DNA of 61,724 bases, counting the filler, from Sphacelaria rigidula (Eukaryota): the NCBI GenBank assembly GCA_964200075.2. It is 9 parts of 9 records of this genome, joined end to end, with 100 filler letters (N's around TTAATTAATTAA, not from the genome) between each part and the next. Parts side by side here need not be neighbours in the genome. Positions count along the whole stretch, not along the records: positions 20,611 to 27,380 come from CAXNAA020018168.1; 8 more parts are not named here. One strand, written 5' to 3'. Each line of letters starts with the position of its first letter. Positions within the stretch are counted from its first letter, which is position 1. Below the pieces are notes generated by a model that saw only the letters and a list, made by a program, of their open reading frames with translations, made no database searches and had not been told where the DNA came from. The translations under genes were made by a program, and so were the position numbers. Shown here in pieces: positions 6,771 through 49,712 of the stretch.

Positions 6771-6870
6771 NNNNNNNNNNNNNNNNNNNNNNNNNNNNNN
6801 NNNNNNNNNNNNNNTTAATTAATTAANNNNNNNNNNNNNNNNNNNNNNNNNNNNNNNNNNNNNNNNNNNN
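6771..6870. other. Artificial contig linker (N44-TTAATTAATTAA-N44)
   Basis: 100-nt spacer with stop codons in all six frames; recurs every ~6870 nt. Confidence 0.98.
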
Positions 6871-13640: not shown

Positions 13641-13740
13641 NNNNNNNNNNNNNNNNNNNNNNNNNNNNNNNNNNNNNNNNNNNNTTAATTAATTAANNNN
13701 NNNNNNNNNNNNNNNNNNNNNNNNNNNNNNNNNNNNNNNN
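13641..13740. other. Artificial contig linker
   Basis: Identical N44-TTAATTAATTAA-N44 spacer. Confidence 0.98.
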
Positions 13741-20510: not shown

Positions 20511-20610
20511 NNNNNNNNNNNNNNNNNNNNNNNNNNNNNNNNNNNNNNNNNNNNTTAATTAATTAANNNNNNNNNNNNNNNNNNNNNNNNNNNNNNNNNN
20601 NNNNNNNNNN
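20511..20610. other. Artificial contig linker
   Basis: Identical spacer. Confidence 0.98.
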
Positions 20611-21949
20611 TGTATAGTTCACATTCTGCCATTATATGACTTCTGCTCTCTATTGCTTTGCCACAGAGGCAGTTCTGTGCATCTGCAGTAGGTGGGGGGA
20701 TGAGGGTTCCCATACCGTCAGAGAAAATCTCCCCGGATTAACCATGCGTGTTTCGGGCAGTCACCATATTGATGGTTTTACCGCGTCGAATCATCCACTA
20801 TGTATTTCCCCCTGCAAATGACCCAATATCACCCCCGTGGTGGTGAAGCTGTGGTTTGGCCAAATTATGAAGACCACCCAACCGTTGAAAGCACGCGAAG
20901 GAAGGAGGCACACAACCTCTTACTCTTCGTGCAGTCTTTTGCGACCTGCCTACCCTATCTTGCGTTCATCAAGAGAGCTAGCTACCCACTGCTGTTGTGA
21001 ACACACTGATAATATCGTACTGATATACAAGGTTTCCCTTCGGGAGGTTGGTACGGGCCTCCCGGGGGTGACGCAAGTCGAAAATATATGGTCAAGAGAG
21101 GACGTTGTATCTCAATGTACAGTGGTGATCGTGGCTGTACGAAAAATTGCATGTGTTACCGGATGCCCTTTGGAAATTTGGGAATTCGGACGAAGGCCGA
21201 CGGTGGAACGGTCGGCGTAGGACATTTCCGAGGTGCGAGAGTGCGAAGTAGCTCTCGTGCCACGAAGACATGACAGCGGGAGGCACTCCCGGAAAATTGG
21301 AATGCGTGGAACATTCTTGGCATATTTTTGTACATCACTGTGGTTTCCACATCACCGGGCCTTGTTTTTGAGACCGGGTGATTGTTTTTGCGGCAAAACA
21401 TTCTTGTGCTGTTGTACTGCTGTGCCTTGTTCATCTCGCCAACGGCCCATTGCACGGTTTTGTGTTTGCTGCTGACAAAGGCCAAGGCAATCTTACATTG
21501 GTTTCAAATGCTTTGCTCTCATGTTCTCGTGACATTTACGGCATAATCGGTGTGTTCGTGGTCCCAAATGAACGAGATCGCGACTTAGAGAAACACGGGG
21601 AATTCATATCCCGCCGAAAGTAATCCTGTTTGAAGATTTCCATGATCTTCAATATACTTTTTTTGTGGTTCGGGTTCTTGTTTCAAGTTTTCCCTAATTT
21701 TGAAAAGGCTTTTGTGGTTCGGGATCGACACCCCGCGAAGAAGGGCCAGTTTGAGCGACTTTCGGTGGCCAGAACACACACCACAGGTATCAGATGACAC
21801 CCAAACCTGAACGATAATGCACCGTTGGGCCTTCTCAGTGCGCTGCAAAAGGAAGCGCGGGAAAAATTATCTTGCCACCAGAGAAAACTCGGCAAAAGTG
21901 GTAAAGAATGTGAGATGATAAATGTACATATATGGAAGGTTGTGTTCGT

Positions 21950-22425
21950 AAGGCACGGGTACGTTCTGTAGGATATGAGATTCCTTCCAGAACTTCCAGA
22001 ACTGTCGGGTACCGGTATGAAAGTCTTACAGAAATGGCCGAGCTTGTCGCGTACGGTACGGGAGGCTTACATAAAAACTGGTACCGGCAATCGGGTAACT
22101 ATTTTAGGGTATACCCGCCCCTCGGGTCAGGGTAAAGTTTTTGTACAGAATTCACAGAACTGTCGGGTAGGGTTATGGGAGGCTTACAGAACTCACATAA
22201 ACTGTGGGGTAGGGTATAGAGGTTGCACAGAACACCGTAACCGCAACCGGGTACATTATCAAGAGCATACCCGTGCCGCCCGGTAACGGTACGGGAGGCT
22301 TACAGAACTCACAGAACTATCGGGTACGGGTATCGAAATCCTACAGAAATTACAGAACTGTCGGGTACAAGTATGGAAATATTACAGAGTTTACAGAACT
22401 GTCGGGTGCGGTAAACACCCGGCGA
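21950..22425 (+). repeat. ~40-bp degenerate minisatellite (ACAGAACT..CAGAACTGTCGGGTA..)
   Basis: Many copies of CAGAACTGTCGGGTA and GGGAGGCTTACA. Confidence 0.8.
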
Positions 22426-24089
22426 AATACACAGGGTATACGGGAAACCGTACCCTACAAAACCTCCCTCCTCAAAAACAAGCGAACAACAAGGCTTTTC
22501 TGCCCACAACAAACGGTCCGGGGCCCAACGAGGAAACACAAAAAAACGCAGGATTTTGAAAGAGCGATATATCTTTGAGCACTGGAAACTGGATGCAGCC
22601 GGAAACAGCTCTGGAAGTCTCAACGGGCGTGACTGAAACTCGTGACTGAAACACGTTGCACGTACACGACCGAGCCCGAATGAACACGCACAGACACGCA
22701 GGGCACAAGCGCATCACGCCTGGCGCTAGGTCCGCGCTCATGAACGAAAGCACAGTAGTGTCCCACGGCAGTTCGTGTTAGAAGAGGGGCGGTCGCGTGT
22801 GCACCACAAAAGTTGCTGGCAATGCAGTCATTGACCGTTTGTGGCTGTGTTATACGGCACCCGTCTGACTGAAATCATCGTGTCTCGTTGAATTGTTTTG
22901 GACTAATTTATCCGCAGGCAAAAACGTTGCGCTCGGTTGATCAGTAGCTGCGGGTCAAGCTATCCGTTGCCCTGTCCTGGCACAGTGGGATCGTTCGTTG
23001 TTGTGTGCTTTGTGCCTGAGGTCCGGGCTGTCTGATAAGCATGTATACCACGGCAAGGATCGTTGCGCAGCTGGTTAATGCTCCCTTTTTATGGAAAAGA
23101 GCAAAAAAATGACGATAACGGGGAGGAGACGTCCTCATTTTTTGCTCTCCTTAGTCGTTTGACCACGCATCCCTTTCGAGATGGAGATGGGGAGGGGGCG
23201 GGAGGGGGGGGGGTACCCGTGATTCTGCATGCCGTAGTCATGAGGCAATTGGCCTCGCATTGCTGACGTAGACGCCGGGTTTTCGTATCCTTAAAAAAAG
23301 CGTGAAAGCGTGTATCTGACATATATGACTCAGCGAAGGGATATCCATATTTATACATGGCTTGAAACCAGCCAGGGGTTTCCCTGCACTAGTTTCAATT
23401 CGAATGCTCAACACTCGCATGTTTATGTAACTCCATGTGCTGTGTCGGTCGAAAAACATCATCCTTTCGAACCCAAATTGACCATGGGTGATTTTGAGCG
23501 ATCTGCGTGTGTGTGTGTGTATAGGCGTTCATATCCTGATCGCACAAATCAGCGTGTTGTGTGTCACCAATTTTGTTCCACGAAATCAATGTCAATGTGA
23601 TCTGAGGCCAATGCCATGAATATGAGGATCCTCGCAGCGGTAAGGTCAACTATTTGACCGCGGCGTGGTCATTTTGAGTCCCGCTGTACCCGTACAACCT
23701 TTTCTTGTGGCTTGATTTAGGGTTGAGAATGATCCTGAAGTCAAGACCTTCATGGGGTTTGCAGTCATTAGACCCGAGCTCTTGACCATCCAGGTTCCTA
23801 GCTGGACGCGGGTTGGACGGGGTTCTGGGGAGGATGTACTCATGATCTTGCATGCTGTAGTCATGAGACCACCGACCTCGCATCCCCACACAGCCGGGAC
23901 GGAGCACGATGGGTTTTCGCCGGGCTAGGCTCGAGGTCTCCGGTGTGTGAATGTGTGTGAAAAATAGACATTTCCGGTTGAGAGGTAACACGTGCATGAA
24001 CAACAGGAGAAGCTTGGTCCGCAAGAACTGTGTTGTTCCTGTTTCGTGTCTCGTGATTGCTCGAGCCTGATCCGAGAGCACACAGATGG

Positions 24090-24830
24090 ACTGTCGCCTG
24101 GAGGGCCATCGTGAGCGGTGACCGCGCTAAGCAGTACATGCAGCCGTGCATCTGTGGCAAGTTTTTTCGAAGCCGGGGCGCAACTGGATGCTTAAGGCAC
24201 GAAAATGACGGACATGCGCCACCCTCAATGATTGCAAGGGACTGCGATATTGAGCGCCTACCGACTAAAGAAGTCTCGCTTTGGAGCAATTCTCGCCAAC
24301 CGCCCATGCTCATCTGGCGTCCATCTGCACCTACAAACACTATCCTTTGAGAAACTCGCGGGGCTATTGGTGGAACAGGATCTCGAAACGATGAGCATGA
24401 GCGGTCGGAGCCTTAGCCCCTTCTGTTTAGTAGGGCTTACGTTTACTCTATGAGTGTTCAGGTGCTCAAATGATCAGAAGCGTTGACATTCGTTCTTTCA
24501 CACCTCTCGTCGAAACAAATTCGTGGTTTCCTGCGCTTGAGGTGAAGGACGCGTCGAGCAGACCGACCGTTGCATCATAATGTACTTGCGAGAAGGATGT
24601 CTCCGGCTCGTCGGGGACATCTTAAGTCACTGTGTACTATACCTTGCTTGCAATGGGGCCAGTGTTTTTATGGTTGACGAATGAAAAATCTTGACGCCTT
24701 TCGCCGACTTGGTAGATAAAATCGACCTGAAACGCAGCTCGGTCGGCCCTCCGCGCCGCGTCAGCGACCAGAACGAACGGTCGGTGTAAGGAGGCAATGT
24801 CAGCTCCACCATCTGCACGGTATCCAGCAC
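24090..24830 (-). pseudogene. Possible decayed tyrosine-recombinase (DIRS/Ngaro-like) fragment
   Basis: VFVGADGRQMSMGGWRELLQSETSLVGRRSISQSLAIIEGGA resembles the DIRS YR F...G....HSLRIGGA motif; stops and frameshifts present. Confidence 0.3.
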
Positions 24831-24919
24831 TACACGACAAGCGATATTTTTCTCACTTCTCGGTGAACCTGGAGGAAAACGTTTTTCCCGTCATGCTGCA
24901 TGCACATGATCATACGCAG

Positions 24920-25065
24920 GGAGAGAAGCTAGAAGACGAGATTATTGAGATCGCGACGGTGTTGAGGGAGAAGGCTGACGAGATGGTGGCAGAAACGGGG
25001 TCTATAAACTTGGAGGTCGTTCAGCCGATGATGGACGAGCTCAAGGTGCTCAAGGCGAGATACAG
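24920..25065 (+). CDS. Internal exon of an unknown helical protein (weakly WHEP-like helix-turn-helix)
   Basis: ACGCAG acceptor, AG|GTGAG donor; GEKLEDEIIEIATVLREKADEMVAETGSINLEVVQPMMDELKVLKARY. Confidence 0.7.
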
Positions 25066-25139
25066 GTGAGCGCTGCCACACTTGATTATTTATTGTACGG
25101 TATCCGCTGATCGACTTTCCCCAATGGTCAATGGTTTCC

Positions 25140-25545
25140 CCAGTGGTCAATGGTCAAATGACTAAGGCAAGCAACAAATGAGTACGCCCCCCCCCCCCTC
25201 CCTGGTCAATGGTCTTATGACTATGGCAAGCATGATCATGAGTACACCCCCCCCTCCCTGCAAGCTCACCCACAACGGTCTACTTTTGTCAAAGCTGCGT
25301 GCTATGCTTTCCCCCCAGTCTGTGCTGCCGTTACTCTCAGAGAAGATACATTATCCTTGTCGTGTGTCTCCTCCCGCCTCCCCACATGACGGCGCTTTGC
25401 GCTTGGTGATTGATTGCGAGCCTGGTCCAGCGAAAACCGGGCGTGCTCCGTCCCGGCTTTGTGGGGATGCGAGGTCAATGATCATGTGACTTCGGCATGC
25501 AAAATCATGAGTACCCCTCCCTCCCCCCCTGCCTTCTACTCCCCC
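25140..25545 (-). repeat. Dispersed repeat family A copy
   Basis: GTGCTCCGTCCC, ATGAGTAC-C-run and GGTCAAATGACTAAGG motifs in reverse orientation. Confidence 0.75.
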
Positions 25546-25573
25546 TCTCCCTTCTCTTTTTATTTGAATCAAC

Positions 25574-26948
25574 CCTCGCGCGTGCTAAAATGGGTAGCGC
25601 CTGTGATTATGATGTGTTCCGCCCCTTGTGTCCAAGATCATGCTTGGCCTGGTTCACTTCACTGCAGTCAAAGTCTAGTTGCTTCAAGCCCTGTGGGCTG
25701 TGTCCTGCGCTTGTATGGATGGGCTGCTGCTGAGAAGGCACATGTGCTGTTTGTCTGAGGTGAATCTGGAAACAGCGGTGGCCGTGATGTGTACCGTTCG
25801 CAGAACGTCAGAACTAGCTAATCTTCCATAGACGGTGCGCAGTATGGCCGCAAACTTTCCAGATTCGGTGCACAACTCACAGCACGGAATCGTTGTGGGA
25901 AAGGGTTCAGGTCTGCGAGGCGGGGTCGGAGCCCGCCTCGCGCTGGTCGATTGGGTCTTGACCTTACGAAATTACAGACAGGCCTGTGAACAATGGCCGT
26001 AACTCACTTACCCAGGACGTGTGTGTGTGTCGGTTATGACTTCTCACTTAGTGTAAGGGAATGGTGCGTGTAGGGACGCGACAGACTTGCCCTTGAACCC
26101 AAACTTTATGCGTTGAGTGCTCAGAACCTCCGGCAGATCGTTATCACTGTACTAGTGGTGTCGGTGACTCGAGGACAGTGCTTCAGGTCCGCAGGGGTGA
26201 TATGGCATACCCTTTTGTGCGGGTCGGACATCCGATCGGACATCTGTCATGTCCGACCCGCATAAAGGGGTATATGCCATATCACCCGTGTGGGCCCAAA
26301 GCATGTTCCTCGGGTTAGTCGCTGATACCACTATAGTAGCAACGCCGATCTCCCGGAGGTTCTGAGCAGTTACCGCAGCAAGGTTGGGTTCAAGGCCAGC
26401 TCTTTCAGGCCGGATGAATCATCGTACGGTGACGTCTTAGCGTACGAACACCGAAGGCTCATTCTTGATTTGGCTAGTCGTTGGGTGTACAACTAGTTGA
26501 TGGAGGGTCAGATCGATGGGGAGTCGGATCGATCGTCGTGTCGCTCGATGATATCCGCACCGAAGGATCGTTTCAGCCTCGTCGTCCTCTAGCTTCAGAG
26601 GGGTAGCCGGCTAGCATCGCTGTAGCTGGTTGCTGTAATTTTGACCGCTGCCCAGTCCGGGCTATGGTCATGCCCTTTACTTATGGCATCCGTCACGACA
26701 CCCACTGTCTATGGCTCTTGTGTTAACCTCAAGCCTGTTCTTTCAAAGCTCGCCTAGTCCAAGTCCGCTTCGCATCCCTACACGCACCGCTCCCTTACAC
26801 CGAGTAAGAAGTCATAACCGACACACGAACACCCACGTCTCCTGTAAGATAAGTCACGGCCGCTGTCCACAGGTCTGTCTTTAACGTAGGTAAACACCAT
26901 TCTGGAAATATCTGGGGACATGGGGGGGGGGCACAGCTTGCGTGCGGG
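25574..26948 (+). ncRNA. Candidate large structured RNA / nested foldback element
   Basis: Terminal pairing, a ~130-bp long-range stem, a ~310-nt hairpin and many local hairpins; no ORF >=60 aa between 25875 and 26778. Confidence 0.5.
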
Positions 26949-27195
26949 AATGTTATGTAGTAAGGAAAAAAAAGCACATAGGGGAAACCGCACGACCTTT
27001 TGAGTACAGGCTGGTTGGTCCTGCTACTAGACCCGAAGGAGTGACTCCATCGATTGCTCATTCGAAGTCGAGAGTGAAGATGTGATATTTTTCAGGAAAG
27101 GAGCGCATTGTCTATTAAAAAACAACCACCAGAGATGTGTTTCATTTTTTTCTTCAGAAATCAGGCCCAGTTGAGGGAATTTTCCAGGGGTCTAC

Positions 27196-27310
27196 ACGTT
27201 ACACGTGCCACAGCGTTACACGTTACGTTCACGTTACGTTTTGGCCGAAACGTAACGTGAACGTTACTTTTTTTTTTACGTGATGAACGTAACGTGAGCG
27301 TAACGTTAAA
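27196..27310. repeat. ACGTT/AACGT-rich palindromic repeat
   Basis: GTTCACGTTACGTTT-TGGCCG-AAACGTAACGTGAAC perfect inverted repeat plus flanking motif copies. Confidence 0.7.
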
Positions 27311-27380
27311 TTTTGAATTATTATTATTATTATTATTATATCCATCACATTAGCTCGATCCCTCGAACCCGTGGTCACAG

Positions 27381-27480
27381 NNNNNNNNNNNNNNNNNNNN
27401 NNNNNNNNNNNNNNNNNNNNNNNNTTAATTAATTAANNNNNNNNNNNNNNNNNNNNNNNNNNNNNNNNNNNNNNNNNNNN
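27381..27480. other. Artificial contig linker
   Basis: Identical spacer. Confidence 0.98.
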
Positions 27481-33459: not shown

Positions 33460-33660
33460 GAACGGTGCTCCGTCTCGAAAGGGATGCGTGGTCAACGGTC
33501 AAATGACTAAGGCAGGCAGCAAATGAGTGCTCCACCCCTCCTCCCCCTTCCCCCCCCCCCCGCGCCTGGTCCGGCGAAAAACCGGTGTGCTCCGTCGCGA
33601 CTTTGTAGGGATGACTAAGGCATGCAATATCATGAAAACACCCCCCTCACCCTTCCCTCC
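33460..33660 (-). repeat. Dispersed repeat family A copy
   Basis: GTGCTCCGTCTCGAAAGGGATGCGTGGTCAA..CCTGGTCCGGCGAAAA..GTGCTCCGTC. Confidence 0.75.
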
Positions 33661-33903
33661 CCAGCATCCACGCCCCCGCCTCCCCTTCCCTCCCCGGCCG
33701 CACGCCGGATCGTCTTCTTTAGACCACTTTTCCGCATTCTCCTGTGTCCTATACTTGTCATATTTTCAACGCTTCCCTTCCTCGGGAAGGGTCGGTAGTC
33801 TCAAGGGATGGACGGAAGTCTCGAGGGATGAGCTCATCCAATCCCTTCCCCGGTTGGTGTGCACAGCCTGCAACCGATGTCTGTTGTGTGCCCACCCCAA
33901 TAG

Positions 33904-34056
33904 GAAAAATGGCGACAAATACAACGGTCACGTGCGCGGCGGGGAGGCGCACGGGCTGGGCGTTTTGGCCTACGCGAATGGAGAGAAGTACAAGGGGGAC
34001 TTCCGAGCGGACATGCGCTGCGGGAGGGGGGTCTGCTTCTATCCCGACGGATCCAA
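33904..34056 (+). CDS. MORN-repeat protein, internal exon
   Basis: NGDKYNGHVRGGEAHGLGVLAYANGEKYKGDFRADMRCGRGVCFYPDGS gives two MORN repeats; TAG acceptor, GTGGGT donor. Confidence 0.9.
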
Positions 34057-34083
34057 GTGGGTAATAGTACTATACTACTTGGC

Positions 34084-34128
34084 GTAGTGGTGGTGGTGGT
34101 GGTGGTGGTGGTAGTGGTAGTGGTAGTG

Positions 34129-39118: not shown

Positions 39119-39360
39119 TTATCCGTGCTTGTTAGCGGGTGTACATAGAGGTCGCACTCGCGAGATCCTCATGACCGAGTACCACCCTAGATCCTTAAAC
39201 GGACACTCTCAGTCGTTCCCGTAGATCGTCGTTATGAACGAATTCAAATTTTCTGTTCCGAAAACTCAGCAAAATCATCCCGTGATCTTCCCCTGACCCT
39301 TATACGCGCTACGACAGTGTACGACAGAGAAGACTTCCACTTGTCTGCATTGCATTCCAA
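39119..39360. promoter_or_regulatory. Probable bidirectional promoter / 5' UTRs
   Basis: 242 nt between divergent ATGs at 39118(-) and 39361(+). Confidence 0.5.
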
Positions 39361-39828
39361 ATGGCGAGGAAATCAAAATCAGCAGCAGCAGCAGCAGCAG
39401 CTGAAGAATCACAACAATCAACCCAAGACTTGTCTCAAGGGATGACAACTGATGAACAAGCAGACACCCAGGACTCTGTCCTCGACTACGACGACTCGCA
39501 AACACAGGAAGCTGAAGCAAAGGAGCAAGGGGAGGAGGAGGAGGAAGCGGAGACGGAGGCGGAGAAGGCGGGGGACGCAGGGAGTAAAAAGGAGAAACAA
39601 AGAGCAGGCAAAGCGAAGAAAAAAAAGGCTGATGAAGATATTTGCACCGAACGCGATGTTCTGCGGAGAGTACCGCTGCCTACCGGGGATGGACGTGCTG
39701 CTGGTGGTAACAAGAGTTTCACCGTTCTGGCGTGGAATGTGAATGGACTGAGAGCCACGGTGAAGAACGGCCTGAATTTGCTGAGGAAGATGGTAGACAC
39801 TGAGAAGCCCGACTTGGTGTGCTTTCAG
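39361..39828 (+). CDS. APEX1: AP endonuclease (ExoIII/APE1 family), exon 1
   Basis: Charged N-terminal extension, then FTVLAWNVNGLRA...EKPDLVCFQ|GT: the canonical WNVNGLRA and PD..C.QETK motifs. Confidence 0.9.
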
Positions 39829-41002
39829 GTGCCAAGCGAAACATGATGTGCAGAGTGTGAAATGTGAACATGGCACCTTTCTGTTGTTTCGGAATATTTT
39901 CGGTGTGCTGGAATCCTGGCCCATTGAAGTTCTCCGCCCGAACCGCGGGTTGACCACTAGCCAGACGTGTTTTTCGAGGTTCAGATTACGGGTTGTTTCT
40001 AGTGGAGAGCCGATGTCCGCATCTAAAATGCCGTTGCCACGCATGTCCCGCGCGTCATAGTTCTCCGTAACCCAAGACCAGCAGCATATCGCCGTCTCAA
40101 AACAGCAACATAGTAGCGGTCACATGTGACCATACATGCATGACGGAGTCAGTTAAATGCGCCCCTTCTGTACATGCGCCTGATGAATTATGTAGAGGCT
40201 ATGCGCCTATCCTTGAATCAAGATAAAGGGGGTTTACAACGCGTAAAATGTCTAGAAGGCGTATAAGAGTAGAGGGCTACGGCTGATGGTGAAATTATGC
40301 ATGAAGAAAAAGGCACAACCTCCTCCCTTCTAGACGATGGCAAATCCTGCTGTACTCACATTGGCTATAATGTTCGTTTTGTATCACTCCTGTTGAGCGT
40401 GCATCTCCATGTCCTAGGTCAACGTACGCCTGCAAATCCACTCTTCCGTAGTTCGCGGCGATGTCAGCGGGCAAAATCTCGGAATAAAAAGCATGGGCAG
40501 TCTTACACCTTAACTGACAGTCTCCTTGTTGGACGCCAATCGGACGGGCTTCTTGCGGGGTTTGGAGCAGTCGCTTTTGGTGAAATAAGACGTGAATAGA
40601 ACCGAGTGGCTCAAAGCCTGGAAGGACCGTATCACAATATACGCCGTGTGCCAAAGTTTGTGTGTTAGCCACGATCAGACACATTGCCGCCACTGCTGAC
40701 GCCATAACATGAGCAGCATCTCGCGAGGAATCCGAGATGGAAGTGGTCGCAACAGTAACCCGCTTTGCCCCTGACTTGGGTATCAACAGGGTAGGCGGGG
40801 GTAGCACGGAAACTGACATCCCCCGGTCGTGCCCTGTGGATTATTGACTTCCCTCCGAGGCTTGCAACTCTAGCCGTGAAGCAGAAAGACCATCGGAAGT
40901 GGTGATCGTGCCAGCAGTAGATGCAGTCATGCTTTTACGAAGATATTACAAGCTGTGGCGCAAGTGAAAAACTGAACGATGGGTTTTTCTTCGTCATACT
41001 TT

Positions 41003-41848: not shown

Positions 41849-41977
41849 TCCGAAGAAACCATCGAACAGCAATACGAAACTTTTCCGGGATCGGCATACT
41901 TCAATATATCCGCCTCACCCCCGACTCGGATTTCTGCGGTGGAATCCGATTGACGCCCTGCTAAACCTCCTGATGAA

Positions 41978-43470
41978 GTGCTTCAACGCTTATCGGTCGA
42001 GTCTCGGGAACATTTCCTGCAAATGTGGAACCAACTTCCACCTCATTTGCGTGGTATCCATTTTGACCTACATTGTCCGGGCTGGGAGCCCGCCGTAATC
42101 CAAGAGCTACAAGATGTTCTCCTGGAATATCAGGACAGATTTTTACGATCCAAAACGGATCTCGGGCATTGTAAAACAATGCCATTCGAGATCACTCTGC
42201 AACCTGGCGTTTCGCCAATCTCATCTCGACCATATCGAACGAATCCCCTCGTCACCAAAAAAGTAAATGCTATATTGGATGCATACTTAGGAGCTGGTCT
42301 GATTCAACACTCGTCTTCGCCATGGGCCTCACCCCTCGCGGTTGTCCCCAAAAAATATGGCAACATACACATCACCGTGAACTACAAACGGCTGAACCGC
42401 GTCACTGTCGTGGGAAAACTTCCCATACCTCGCATCGACGATGTCTTCGACTCTCCCGGCGAAGGAAAAATATTCAGCACTTTCGATCTGGCATCTAGAA
42501 TTTTCCAAAATGCAATTCACCCCTATACAGTTCCCTTGACAGCGTTCTGTACATCTTCAGGGGCTTTTTGAATGGCTTCGTATGCCACAAGGCGCTGCCA
42601 TCGCACCGGGCTGCTTTCAATGAATGCCTCATGCAACGCGTTACTGGCGGTCTCGAGCATGTTACCATGTATCTAGACGATGCTATCGCTTTTGATGCCT
42701 CCCCCAAGGCGCATGTTCGCACTCTACGGGAATTCCTCTCCCGCTTGCGTACACATGACTTAAAATTGTCTCCATCCAAAGCTCGACTCGGAGCCACTGA
42801 ATTGGATTTTTCAGGACACTCTAATTCTCCTGCTGGATTGCACCCAGACACGAATAAAGTCAAGGCTATGACTGATATACCCATGCCCACCAATATTTCG
42901 AAGCTTCGCTCGCTGTTGGGCGAACTTTCATATTGTCGAAAATGTTTGCCCAATTTGTCCAAGCGGATCACGCCCATCACAGATTTAGTGAAGAAAAACG
43001 TCCCGTTTGTCTTCACTGAAGAAATGGAAGCCGCCGTCCGCGAACTGCTCAAAACACTGACCGAAAAACCGGTTCTTTGTTTTTCGGATTGGGATGCGGT
43101 ACAAGACGGCTCACGCCTTTTCCAACTACACACCAAAGCTAGCACAGATGGGTTCGGCGCCGTTTTGAATCAGCCTCAACCGGATGGCTCTGTCTGACCT
43201 ATTTTGTACATCAGCCGCGCAACCCTCCCAAACGAGGCAAACTGGAGTCCACTCGAACTCAAAGGCGGAGTCATAACTTGGGCTATTAAAAGGCTTCGAC
43301 AGTACTTGTTCGACGTGCCTTTCCACATCTATACAGATCACGGAGCTCTTGAACAACTCGCTGAGGTTGAAGAACATAACCCCCGCGTACAACGGTGGCT
43401 GGAGTTCTTGACTGCCTAGCAGTACATTGTTAATCACCTTCCGGACAAAACCAACGGCAATGCTGACCTT
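41978..43470 (+). pseudogene. pol: Gypsy pol: reverse transcriptase + RNase H (frameshifted, with stops)
   Basis: RPYRTNP, SSSPWASPLAVVPKK, VNYKRLN, FSTFDL, YLDD (42670-42681), ASTDGFGAVL, FHIYTDH, RVQRW, NGNADLLSR; frameshift near 42570, stops at 43197 and 43419. Confidence 0.95.
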
Positions 43471-44149
43471 CTTTCGCGATTGCCTCTATCCCCTACAGCG
43501 GTAGATTTCAGTCCCGCTTGCCGCTTGACCGAACCTGACGAACCAGGCGTCTACCCCATTCGGTGTTTTTCTACGCCCATCTACGTGCTCGACCTGCAAT
43601 GTCCTGAAACAGGTCTGCACATGGGGGCGGGGTGCCCTCTGCCCCCTGATACAGTTTTGGATGGCTTAGCGCCCACAGCTGCTGATTTTGCCGACTTCCG
43701 CACTTTCGGCCCTCGTGCGAACATATCGGCGCCGCCACCACCAACTGTTCACCTCATCTCCGACAACACGCGCTCTCGGTCGGCAGCCCGTGCAAATTCT
43801 TCGCGTGCTGTAATGCCGCCACCGCCGCCGGCCGCTTCTGACAATGCATCGCCGCCGCCGCCTCGTGCCCCCACGGGCCGTACCACGCTTCCACAAACCG
43901 GCCGCGTGCCCAGTGTTGTACCAACACAGCCCGCGCCCCTTGTGCGCCCCACGCGCCGATCACGTTAATCACCTCGCGCTACCCCCTCGCCGCCTTCTGG
44001 GGATCTCCCAGCACCTGCGCCACTGACTCGTGATACACATGCGTCAGATCCACTTCCGAATCAAGATGTTGACGTCGGCACCCCTGCTTCTTCACCTGTG
44101 CCACCCCTTCCTAAGCCACCATGTTTGGTTGGCTCCCCGGCTGAAGGAC

Positions 44150-46290
44150 AACTCCGAGAATTTCTCGCTAGCTACTCTCACCGCGATTGGGCTCGCGACC
44201 GACAACAGGAACCGCTCTGTCGTGCGACAATGCGGTACTTACGGCTCAAATGCCCCACCCCTTTCCCGGCTGAGATCCTGACTCCCGTGGACTCTCTACC
44301 CGCCCGTCAGATCTGACGTGCTCGAGCTGGCACCCAAAGGTACTATCTTCACGACTGACGACGACGTTCATTTGCTTGTTCGCCGGTTCCACTCACATTT
44401 GGGCACGGCTGCCACAGTAACCGCTGCCACTTCGGCACATATGCGTCATGAAGCCCCTATCCGCATCTATGTCCCTATAATGATGCGTCCATAGGTCATG
44501 AAGGGCTGTCACTCTGATTTGTCCTGCCACTTAGGCGTCACGCGCACGTTAGCGCTCCTTGAACGCTTTTATTGGTGGATTGGCACGGAAGCATCCACGC
44601 GTTTTTGGGTCCGACGAAGTTTCAAATGTCAGGCTCGCGAAACCTCTCGACGGACTGTGCGATGGCCGGTGATTTCCATGGAGCTTCCAAACACTCCTGG
44701 TCACTTCGTATCGTTTGACTGCTTCGGCCCTTTACCCCCAACTGACCGTGGTAATATCTACATTCTGCTCTTCACCGACCTCTTCAGCCGTCACGCGACT
44801 ATGTATGCTGTTACTGCTAGCGATTTCACTGCTGCCGGCACAGCGGACATTCTCGTCCATGACTACATTAAGCACTATGGCCGCCCGCAACGGCTCCTCT
44901 CCGACAATGGTCAACAATTTTGCTCCGAACTCTCGGATGCTTTGTACAAGCTCCTCGGCATTCGCAAAATTGCCACGAGCGCCTACCACCCTAACGGTAA
45001 CGGTGGAACTGAACGTATGAACCACACGATGGCTCAAATGCTATCCATGGTCGTAAACGACCGACAAAATGACTGGGACCCTCATCTTTCGTATGTCATG
45101 CTGTCTTACAACAATTCGGTTAACGCGGCTACGGGCTTCTCGCCCAACGAGCTGCATCTTGGATGCTACCCTCGTCTGCCCATCACCGTTTTCGAAAGAC
45201 ATACCTTCGATGGTCACCAAGGTCTGGAACAGGATCAGATGTCCTACCACGACCTTGCCAGGGCTCGTCAGCGCAAAGCTTTCACTTTGGTGCGCGAACA
45301 ACACGCTATCAACGCCTCACGCCTTGAAAGATCCACATCCGCCTTCTACAACTTGATGCACAAACGCCCTACTTGGAAGATCGGCGATTGGGTCTGGATC
45401 TACAACAGTTTGCCCACCATCCGTCAAGGCGCTGACCGTACTGCCCAGGCAACAGTCTTGAAGACGAAACTGTCCCTCAATTGGACGGGTCCGTTCAAGA
45501 TTCTCATATTCGGACCTTCGCCGACATCTCCTGACGGCAAGCCCATTGGCGACACATTCCCCTTCCTCGATATACCTCGTGACCTCCAGGGGCACGGCGC
45601 TAAATCTCCGGTCTCTGTGCATCGTTGCAAGCCTTGCACGAACCCGCATGACACTACGGACATGCCTCAATACCTGCCTGCAGGTCTCACTCATCACGTG
45701 CTCAACAGCTACTCAACAAAATCTCCACCGTACCACGTGACCACCGATGGCGTGACTGAAAAACCTCTCCCCTTGGCCGTGTCCCACATTTCCGGCCACC
45801 AAATCACTCAAGGCCCTGGCGGCAAAATTGCCGTTATGTACAAGGCACACTGGCAAGGTCTTCGGCGTGCGTCTTGGGAACGCGAGTCCGACCCTCAACT
45901 GCACCGTCGTGCCATCCTTCTCTATTGGACACAATCCCAGGACTACGTTTTGTAGCCGATTGTTACGAACTCGTATCCACCAAAACACGGGACGAAAAGA
46001 TTCGCGCGAAACAACAACCGCTTCCTAAAGGTGCCTACTTGTGGTATAACGGCAGCGATTACCTCTGGTGGCTAGGTCAGATCCACTCCGTCGATGCCCC
46101 GCGGCCGACACGTACATCGTACGTTTCCTCGACGATCCTGAGCCCGTTCAGCTCAAGCTTCGCCCCGATTTTTACACGACCAGCCCCTCCACACCCCGCG
46201 GCTCCTGGTGCCTACCACGTTTCAAGTCACACGGCCTACGCCGAGGTCTTCAGCGCAATATCGATCGTACACACGACATTAATGCACCAC
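44150..46290 (+). pseudogene. pol: Gypsy pol: integrase (zinc finger, DDE core), chromodomain, Tudor-like tail
   Basis: CHSDLSCHLGVTRT..FYWW..KCQ; FDCFGPLP; LLSDNG; AYHPNGNGGTERMNHT; WTGPFKI; MYKAHWQG..SWERE; WWLGQI..YIVRFLDDP. Confidence 0.93.
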
Positions 46291-48179: not shown

Positions 48180-49712
48180 TCGGCTGGCCCAGCTCGTAGT
48201 CGCATGAAGTATCCGAGGGCCTGAAGTACCTCATGCAGCCGGCGCGGGCCCCTAACCGAACCACCACCAACAGCAACATATGGTACGCAAATAATCGATT
48301 TCTTACCCGTTCAGTTGCCTTTCACCTAAACAAAAAGACCGAAACTGACATGTTGTTTCCTAAACAGATTTCCGAGGTTGTTCCCACAAGCAACTCCCCG
48401 TACACCGAGACTCCGTCGTAGGTTATGCCGCACTTCAAACGAAGGTTTCCAGCACGCCAGAATCCGAGAAGCAATTCCGAATATGGACACAGGTTCTCCG
48501 CGTTTCAGCCGGACATGATATGATTTTGGTTCTCGGCCCATTGACCTGGTCGTCTTGTCTCGAAAATCGCCGTTTCCACATCCATGCACACAACAACGAG
48601 TGTGCTCAATGTATGAGACGCACCAAACACGGAATATTTTTTCGCTTCTTGAGCTCTTCATGCTGCCTCACACCGTGTTGTGAAATAGCTGCACACTGCT
48701 GTATCGCCAAACATCATGCATGCAGCGACAGCTACAGCTTATACTGCTGTTTGGGGTTGATGGTGATGACACGCGGATTGTTTTAGCTGCTGATGATGCT
48801 TTTGGCTGTGAATTAAAAGTGAACTGTACTGACTGTGTCGTGTCTGGCAGCGAGATGTACAGGTACAGCCGTCGAAATACAAACAATAAAGTAGACAGGA
48901 GTGAACAACACCACACCACAACATCATGATGGAATTCCCGCGGCTGCTGCAAAATGAAATAGGAGAGAAGAGAGCCCAGAAACGGTCTGAGACTACCGCA
49001 CAAGAATACCCACAACAGTACGGACAGGACGGTCCAGCAATGCAGACATTAGGATAGTGCGAATTCAAACATGCTCGAGGTGTGGCGGCACGGCCACAAA
49101 AGTGTCAACACGACGAAAGGGTAGGCAGAGGGCGTGCCATTTGGGTATTCCGTAGTAGTAATGGGAGAGAGCGTGCACCAATTGCAATGCAGGGGCTCAA
49201 CGAAATGGTGAAACACTGAAAAAGTCCGGTACCCTCATCGAACGAAGATGCCACGTATGCTCTCCTCCCTCTAATACGTTTTTTTTGTTACGGAGGGGGT
49301 GACGACACAAAGTTGTGTGCTGTGCGGATGGGTTGGTCCTCGCGGCAAGATGAACAGGTCAATTAATCGGGAACCAAAATCAAGAACGTATCATACCCGC
49401 TTGGAACGCGGAGAACTTGTGAATTCACGTTCTGAATTCCCGCTGGGATTCCGGTGTGCCGCAATCCCTCGTTCGGAGTGTGGGGAGTTGTTTGTGGGCA
49501 CAACCTTATAAGTCTATTCTGGAGAGGACACGTCGGTTGCGATCGCGATCGTTGCGCTTTGGTAAACGGCAAAAAAAATGGTATGTAAGCGATTCTTCGG
49601 ATGCCATGGTTGTTGTTGCTGGTGGTTTGGTCAGCGGTACGCTCCGGCTGCGTGAGGTACATGAGGTCCTCGGGTGGTGCATGCCCGACTAGAAACGATC
49701 GGGACGGCCGTT
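48180..49712. mobile_element. Long inverted-repeat structure (~360-bp diverged arms around ~800 nt)
   Basis: 48180-48550 is the diverged reverse complement of 49354-49712 (e.g. GTTCTCCGCGTT / AACGCGGAGAAC; GTACCTCATGCAGCCGG / CCGGCTGCGTGAGGTAC). Confidence 0.7.

Follow-up and report, generated by a model that had tools for sequence, protein, structure and literature searches.

An old foldback remnant of a Ty3/Gypsy retrotransposon probably accounts for a stable branched fold in an intron of Sphacelaria rigidula

The segment 25574-26948 of the Sphacelaria rigidula window (the whole 61,724-nt stretch of DNA analysed here) is best explained as an old, decaying foldback remnant of a Ty3/Gypsy retrotransposon inside the intron of a spliced brown-algal gene, a reading to which we assign a probability of about two in three. 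The data below establish the identity of its parts, their head-to-head arrangement at about 26240, the single-copy nature of the composite and its intronic position. The window consists of separate contigs of almost equal length, ~6,770 bases each; between them stand 100-nt N linkers that have a stop-codon core (6771-6870, 13641-13740, 20511-20610, 27381-27480 and onwards). Because the contigs are separate, features on either side of a linker are not neighbours, and the true neighbourhood of the locus is 20611-27380 only (contig C18168 of a 244-Mb assembly). A 113-nt inverted repeat (25417-25529/27518-27630), considered as a flanking pair of terminal inverted repeats, was rejected since it spans the linker between two contigs. 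Other contigs of the window carry exons at 33527-34087 (+) and 39286-39846 (+), which resemble exons for, respectively, a MORN-repeat protein and for an AP endonuclease.

A similarity search of the genome returned 69 matches at 37 candidate places, all of them partial save the locus itself. About two-thirds of the locus (943 of 1375 nt, within which 25931-25975 depends on one weak alignment) matches loci of one dispersed family, while 25574-25960 has no other copy in the genome. The family carries a repeat of ~350 nt that has fixed ends and begins with TG (alignments of 14 and 12 stretches). This repeat precedes an open reading frame (ORF) region in copies C8536, C9162, C6255 and C780. In 5' copies a primer-site-like motif comes after it, and in all four of the aligned 3' copies a G-rich (purine) tract comes before it. 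Copy C8536 displays the order LTR, ORF region, RVT_1, RT_RNaseH, Integrase_H2C2 and rve, which is that of Gypsy elements (Pfam E-values: RVT_1, 5e-6; RT_RNaseH_2, 2e-24; Integrase_H2C2, 4e-5; rve, 1e-5); its frames are broken, so only the RNase H matches pass the Pfam cut-off. Since C8536 carries pol in Gypsy order, the family belongs to Ty3/Gypsy and the ~350-nt repeat is its LTR. The ORF that we call gag gave no Pfam match and is named for its position between LTR and pol. Among the family copies examined, none had an LTR at each end of a full interior, and no named Ectocarpus family was found to match.

Judged by similarity, the bulk of the locus is evidently a rearranged Ty3/Gypsy retrotransposon remnant. 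It shares LTR, gag-position and pre-LTR sequence with a Ty3/Gypsy (Metaviridae) family of RT-RNaseH-integrase order; unlike an element of that kind, it lacks pol, a 5' LTR and a primer site, and it is a rearranged fragment with an inverted duplication. Nor does it qualify as an intact or mobile LTR element, TRIM and LARD classes included: its LTR pieces are inverted and its G-rich tract has decayed. The Ty3/Gypsy (Metaviridae) remnants of Ectocarpus introns, as the accessible portion of PMC12477816 describes them, are likewise short, degraded and intronic. Elsewhere, a separate contig of the window carries a decayed Gypsy-type pol at 41954-45955 (+), with RT, RNase H and integrase-like frames recognised by eye, and in C9162 (L022:4829-7065, -) a pol that appears by eye to be of Copia type adjoins a copy of the Gypsy family.

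The overall shape is that of one ~930-nt hairpin, head to head at about 26240, with a left arm that is short by 354 nt. The left arm is made of the inverted 3' third of an LTR on its outer side (25961-26089, -; up to 82-84% identical to LTR copies), which pairs with 26760-26891, and of an inverted gag-position piece on its inner side (26074-26246, -), matched by tblastx and blastn to the LTR-pol ORF region of family copies. The turn-around, or loop of the inverted duplication, lies at 26232-26248 and is closed by the longest helix of the foldback, 24 bp formed by 26208-26231 with 26249-26272. The right arm begins with a decayed gag-position piece (26241-26572, +) that contains stops, indels and shared peptide blocks and has 64-70% DNA identity to family copies L035-L041. 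It continues with a pre-3'-LTR segment (26587-26633, +; 82% mean column identity in a 5-sequence alignment), in which the family's G-rich tract is decayed, and ends with a shortened LTR (26634-26887, +) that lacks roughly 100 nt of the 5' part of the ~350-nt family repeat and whose 3' third pairs with the left arm. On the left the gag piece is joined straight to the LTR piece, and the 354 nt equivalent to 26407-26760 are absent. This leaves a loop-out of decayed coding and LTR sequence in the right arm, 26407-26572 of the gag piece included, and hence the nested, branched look for which the locus was originally singled out.

The locus as a whole gave z -18.1 on the + strand and -17.5 on the - strand (8 shuffles only), and its DNA fold energies are near-equal by strand (-248.3 and -248.8). 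The earlier note, which read the segment as a candidate large structured RNA, was correct about the main helices: the long-range stem 25961-26089/26760-26891 contains 109 Watson-Crick pairs, and the hairpin of ~310 nt said to lie within it was recovered as 26080-26406 (z -19.2 on +, -16.8 on -). A small GC-rich hairpin at 25902-25965 reached weak significance (z -1.5 on +, -3.5 on -). The run of small hairpins that was to make up the branched part did not withstand shuffling: section 26407-26760 folds at chance level (z -0.6 on +, -0.4 on -), and the individual hairpins, with hand-picked bounds, reach only z -1 to -3. The gag part of the loop-out is no different (z -0.1 on +, -1.9 on -), and its counterparts fold at chance in 7 of 7 homologues (z -0.6 to +1.5). 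Paralogous copies folded jointly gave weak consensus structures (12 LTR stretches, -7.4 kcal/mol; 8 gag stretches, -24.3), in which the small hairpins do not reappear. The motif CACCGAAGG does occur twice, as claimed (at 26449 and 26558); it is missing at both equivalent places in two family copies checked and is not conserved in an 8-row alignment. We also confirmed that no ATG-started ORF of at least 60 aa covers 25875-26778.

The same note had described the inner-stem mismatches as mostly G.U, a sign of selection on RNA. Counted on the + strand after strand-neutral alignment, they comprise 14 G.U and 5 A.C (p=0.064) together with 15 other mismatches, so the inner stem is not mostly G.U. The bias is reversed in the outer stem (5 G.U to 10 A.C), and the two long stems pooled give 19 G.U, 15 A.C and 20 other mismatches. 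The 142-nt hairpin at 25744-25885 has 10 G.U to 7 A.C and the terminal pairing 9 to 0; the five stems sum to 40:22 (p about 0.03, a hand estimate), or 31:22 once the chance-level terminal pairing is left out. Polarised changes in the inner stem number 7 G.U against 2 A.C, and a skew equal to that of the inner stem was seen in only 1 of 22 background inverted-repeat rows. The inner-stem bias, the rarity of its skew and the 40:22 sum count against the decayed-foldback reading. Transcription-linked mutation bias can also yield a sense-strand G.U lean.

The host gene is represented by a coding exon at 24920-25065 (+), with AG before it and GT after it, that belongs to a protein of unknown function conserved in brown algae. 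Its product has 69-81% identity to 16 proteins, of which the named ones are all brown-algal (Ectocarpus, Scytosiphon, Hapterophycus, Pylaiella and, as P0012, Cladosiphon); the exon as first called is confirmed. The homologous proteins run ~25 aa beyond its end, and a 790-nt contig of an RNA-like run, whose match is limited to 24918-25065, extends further on both sides. Because both continue past the exon, the locus lies in a sense-strand intron, a position previously judged probable. A pattern search for the last exon of the gene returned 2 matches, neither convincing. At C22247:3213-3398 (-; L031) there is an exon similar to the host's upstream exon, with 53% identity to an Ectocarpus homologue; the link is putative, as it may be either the missing upstream exon or part of a paralogue.

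Sequencing runs X1-X4 were taken as RNA by guess and are called RNA-like here. Low-depth contigs of X1-X3 overlie parts of the locus and likewise other parts of the intron; contig depth cannot rank expression, so this coverage was used neither for nor against any reading. Outside the foldback, 25131-25560 consists of dispersed high-copy repeats, recognised by contig pile-up and by matches to arbitrary stretches (for 25380-25540, 22 matches in 14 of 40). Very many contigs stack over 25131-25560, with enormous summed depth in the RNA-like runs, and these repeats are possibly an abundant transcribed non-autonomous element. A small palindromic repeat of ACGTTAC-type units at 27195-27310 is high-copy in run X5.

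The two arms are 77% identical in gag and 84% in LTR, whereas their identity to sister copies is 68-73% and 82-84%, respectively; arm-to-arm identity is thus slightly above or equal to that with sister copies. A tree of 11 gag pieces places both arms and both arms of the C780 foldback in one clade (100/100) without order inside it. A sister relationship of the two arms is thus not recovered, and we infer a single local duplication as the simplest reading. An internally deleted element comprising a gag piece, the pre-LTR segment and the 3' LTR would have sat in the intron, and a local foldback duplication would have made a reverse copy of it. A deletion of 354 nt from the left copy, perhaps between short stretches alike in gag and LTR, would have come next, before decay of both arms to their present identity of 77-84%.

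Foldbacks were also sought in a background sample made up of the opening 10 kb from each of 40 long contigs, taken by arbitrary number and hence not at random (399,548 bases). It contained 30 inverted-repeat rows with arms of at least 100 nt, in 17 of the 40 stretches, which merged into 23 foldback regions; degenerate palindromes of great length are very abundant in this genome. Some of these palindromes (L097, L108, L062) exceed 1 kb and have nested arms, and the background palindromes look like foldback or MITE-type families. The excess stability of the locus, ~184 kcal/mol, was exceeded by 1 of 33 random 1375-nt tiles (33 folded out of 280, with one shuffle each), and 3 of the 33 exceeded 100 kcal/mol. 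Among 52 other family contigs, six carry family pieces in both orientations and four a foldback of family sequence: C780 (L021:824-1423), C1086 (L027:4693-6266), C1218 (L050:1504-1806) and C23072 (L052:1562-1824). These sister foldbacks consist of LTR or gag-position pieces, none being built from pol. The gag subfamily of the locus was found at only two loci, both foldbacks; this may mean selective retention and so tells against the ordinary reading. The turn-around of C780 lies within ~10 nt of the gag position at which the left arm of our locus breaks off. In the window, 48197-49691 holds a further inverted repeat, its 352-nt arms 66% identical, to which nothing matched within 629 kb of compared sequence.

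The 142-nt hairpin at 25744-25885 (+), also listed in the earlier note, is confirmed (-64.3 kcal/mol; z -6.0 on + and -3.7 on -, or -5.1 and -2.6 in a second estimate). It is separate from the foldback, of pre-miRNA size and a fair pre-miRNA candidate. That it might be the only functional element here, a lineage-specific intronic miRNA precursor beside the remnant, we regard as possible if short of probable, and this is compatible with a decayed foldback. The hairpin has no other copy in the genome, and its second estimate is distinctly stronger on the + strand; z -5 was reached by none of 160 random 150-nt windows, although these were not centred on hairpins. A candidate U-starting 21-mer at 25779-25799 has 19 of its 21 bases paired in a duplex scan. 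Six U-starting 21-mers with at least 17 paired bases occur in this hairpin and many in the gag hairpin. Its G.U:A.C ratio after strand-neutral alignment is just 10:7, three of the four miRNA criteria, namely reads for both miRNA and miRNA*, a 2-nt 3' overhang and a homogeneous 5' end, are read-based, and none of three hairpin motifs occurs in the Ectocarpus miRNA table; to our knowledge, brown-algal miRNAs are not conserved at the distance between Sphacelaria and Ectocarpus. Its length and energy fall within the range of Ectocarpus precursors in Table S2 of PMC4513859, and its pairing with the other arm exceeds the 15 nt or more asked of a miRNA in the methods available from that source, a threshold that any long stem easily passes. 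Brown-algal miRNAs are mostly intronic and sense in the sections of PMC4513859 and PMC5381526 available to us.

The foldback itself may act as a putative hairpin-RNA precursor in the intron, and of the readings in the earlier note this is the useful one. Judging from gene structure, host-gene transcription would pass through the hairpin and produce a long dsRNA in the intron, with a predicted ~270 imperfect pairs and helices of 24, 20, 17, 16 and 15 bp. Such dsRNA could be diced to mixed 21-nt small RNAs as a by-product, with no selected higher-order fold. The idea is plausible because the genome has a multi-exon Piwi-domain gene and because of what is recorded for brown-algal small RNAs. In the available text of PMC4513859, transposons come next after structural RNAs in Ectocarpus small-RNA coverage, complex palindromes several hundred bases long harbour many of the small-RNA loci, and the miRNA esi-MIR3469b resides in an intronic inverted repeat of roughly 1500 bp; on Gypsy elements, 21-nt RNAs concentrate towards the 5' end (PMC12477816).

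A stronger version, which we consider rather unlikely, is that selection retained the foldback in the manner of maize Mu killer: host read-through would yield gag/LTR dsRNA, whose siRNAs would repress the Gypsy family in trans, or the locus would be a nascent miRNA. The sense-strand intron of a spliced gene, the Piwi-domain gene, the inner-stem G.U lean and the five foldback loci, ours included, built from LTR or gag-position parts of the family all fit it, as do the small-RNA palindromes and the intronic inverted-repeat miRNA of Ectocarpus and the 81 of 912 21-mers that come within one mismatch of another family locus (53 loci compared). Against it, the bias of the outer stem runs the other way (5:10), and many mismatches cannot pair at all. 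Only 5 of the 912 21-mers match another locus perfectly, so present-day useful silencing is doubtful. Stops occur in the two family copies that were translated or read in detail, so a live target stays putative. Published brown-algal miRNA precursors, moreover, are reported to lack transposon similarity (PMC4513859, PMC5381526). Six motifs from the window were absent from the Ectocarpus miRNA table, and of six Ectocarpus genes that host a miRNA and are annotated as 'expressed unknown protein', none showed a link to the host gene of our locus.

The anatomy has precedents. The locus is an inverted transposon duplication within a host transcription unit, and the same anatomy, a partial inverted transposon duplication with a host read-through hairpin, is reportedly that of Ac/Ds silencing loci. 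As in Mu killer, according to the accessible part of PMC3440606, transposon coding and terminal sequence is partly inverted-duplicated, with host read-through and a long hairpin; unlike Mu killer, the locus derives from a retrotransposon rather than a DNA transposon and is the shorter of the two (about 0.9 kb against about 4 kb). Its arms and the family copies are 16-35% diverged, the likeness is one of anatomy, and any silencing or siRNA is putative. The locus also resembles the 'weak miRNA candidate' loci of Ectocarpus in being a complex palindrome of several hundred bases in a protein-coding gene; those loci are defined by small-RNA reads, whereas ours is known from sequence alone. The corresponding account in PMC4513859, as far as it is available, reports no transposon origin for Ectocarpus precursors, whereas our palindrome is plainly retrotransposon-derived; the 65 Ectocarpus weak candidates may include similar cases.

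The initial proposal of a single 1.37-kb structured ncRNA, or of an RNA-mobilised non-autonomous element with paired ends, is very improbable. The fold model does pair the ends, at a mean pair probability of 0.73-0.79, and one low-depth RNA-like contig starts at 25574. Against shuffles, however, the end pairing is near chance (hand-picked bounds, p=0.39 for DNA and 0.03 for an RNA duplex; unpicked wider bounds, 0.75 and 0.42), and the contigs listed for two other RNA-like runs start at 25829 and 25784. An undescribed ncRNA finds no support in a Ty3/Gypsy remnant whose branched part is unexceptional here and in seven homologues. Mobilisation through RNA fares no better: the composite has no second copy, a search for target-site duplications (TSDs) at the locus returned only 5-6-nt coincidences inside the claimed ends, and the hammerhead core motif CTGA.GA is absent from both strands of the locus. 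Nothing in the window reached an Rfam gathering score, and ARAGORN found 0 genes in contig C18168. Sub-threshold Rfam matches in 25400-27100 to mir-BART12 (27 of 70 bits) and Six3os1 (17 of 50) were taken as generic. A retrozyme or viroid-like circular RNA was rejected for want of a hammerhead core, an Rfam ribozyme family and a second copy.

A DNA transposon of the foldback or MITE type, bounded by terminal inverted repeats, is less probable still. Such families abound, 19 of the 23 sampled foldback regions matching other loci, but the arms here are retrotransposon gag and LTR sequence, and the composite has no TSD and is single-copy, which already contradicts it. Lastly, a palindromic chimera of the assembly, conceivable in a fragmented assembly whose contigs are concatenated with linkers, is hardly credible given arms that differ by 16-23% and a run X5 contig that spans 25456-27205 with 1 differing letter (X5 may be the assembly source).

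As it stands, the locus is unremarkable, the outcome of transposon decay together with a local inverted duplication, and it cautions that a very stable branched fold in the Sphacelaria rigidula genome is not evidence of a new RNA. The remnant would matter if small-RNA reads map to its arms, for which the locus and its four sister foldbacks form a test set. It bears on the source of dsRNA triggers for transposon small RNAs and on how the 'genomic hairpins' underlying brown-algal miRNAs arose; in a search that lay mostly outside subscription journals, we found no title or abstract opening that presents foldbacks of retrotransposons as triggers of silencing in these algae. Since published precursors lack transposon similarity, small RNAs from the locus would add something real, if modest. 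A more speculative model, which we hold to be a long shot, is that brown algae tame retrotransposons through recurrent Mu killer-like intronic LTR/gag foldbacks (five loci in this family), kept as dsRNA triggers of the 21-nt small RNAs at Gypsy 5' ends and ageing into new miRNAs. If true, it would contradict the published view that brown-algal miRNAs are not transposon-derived.
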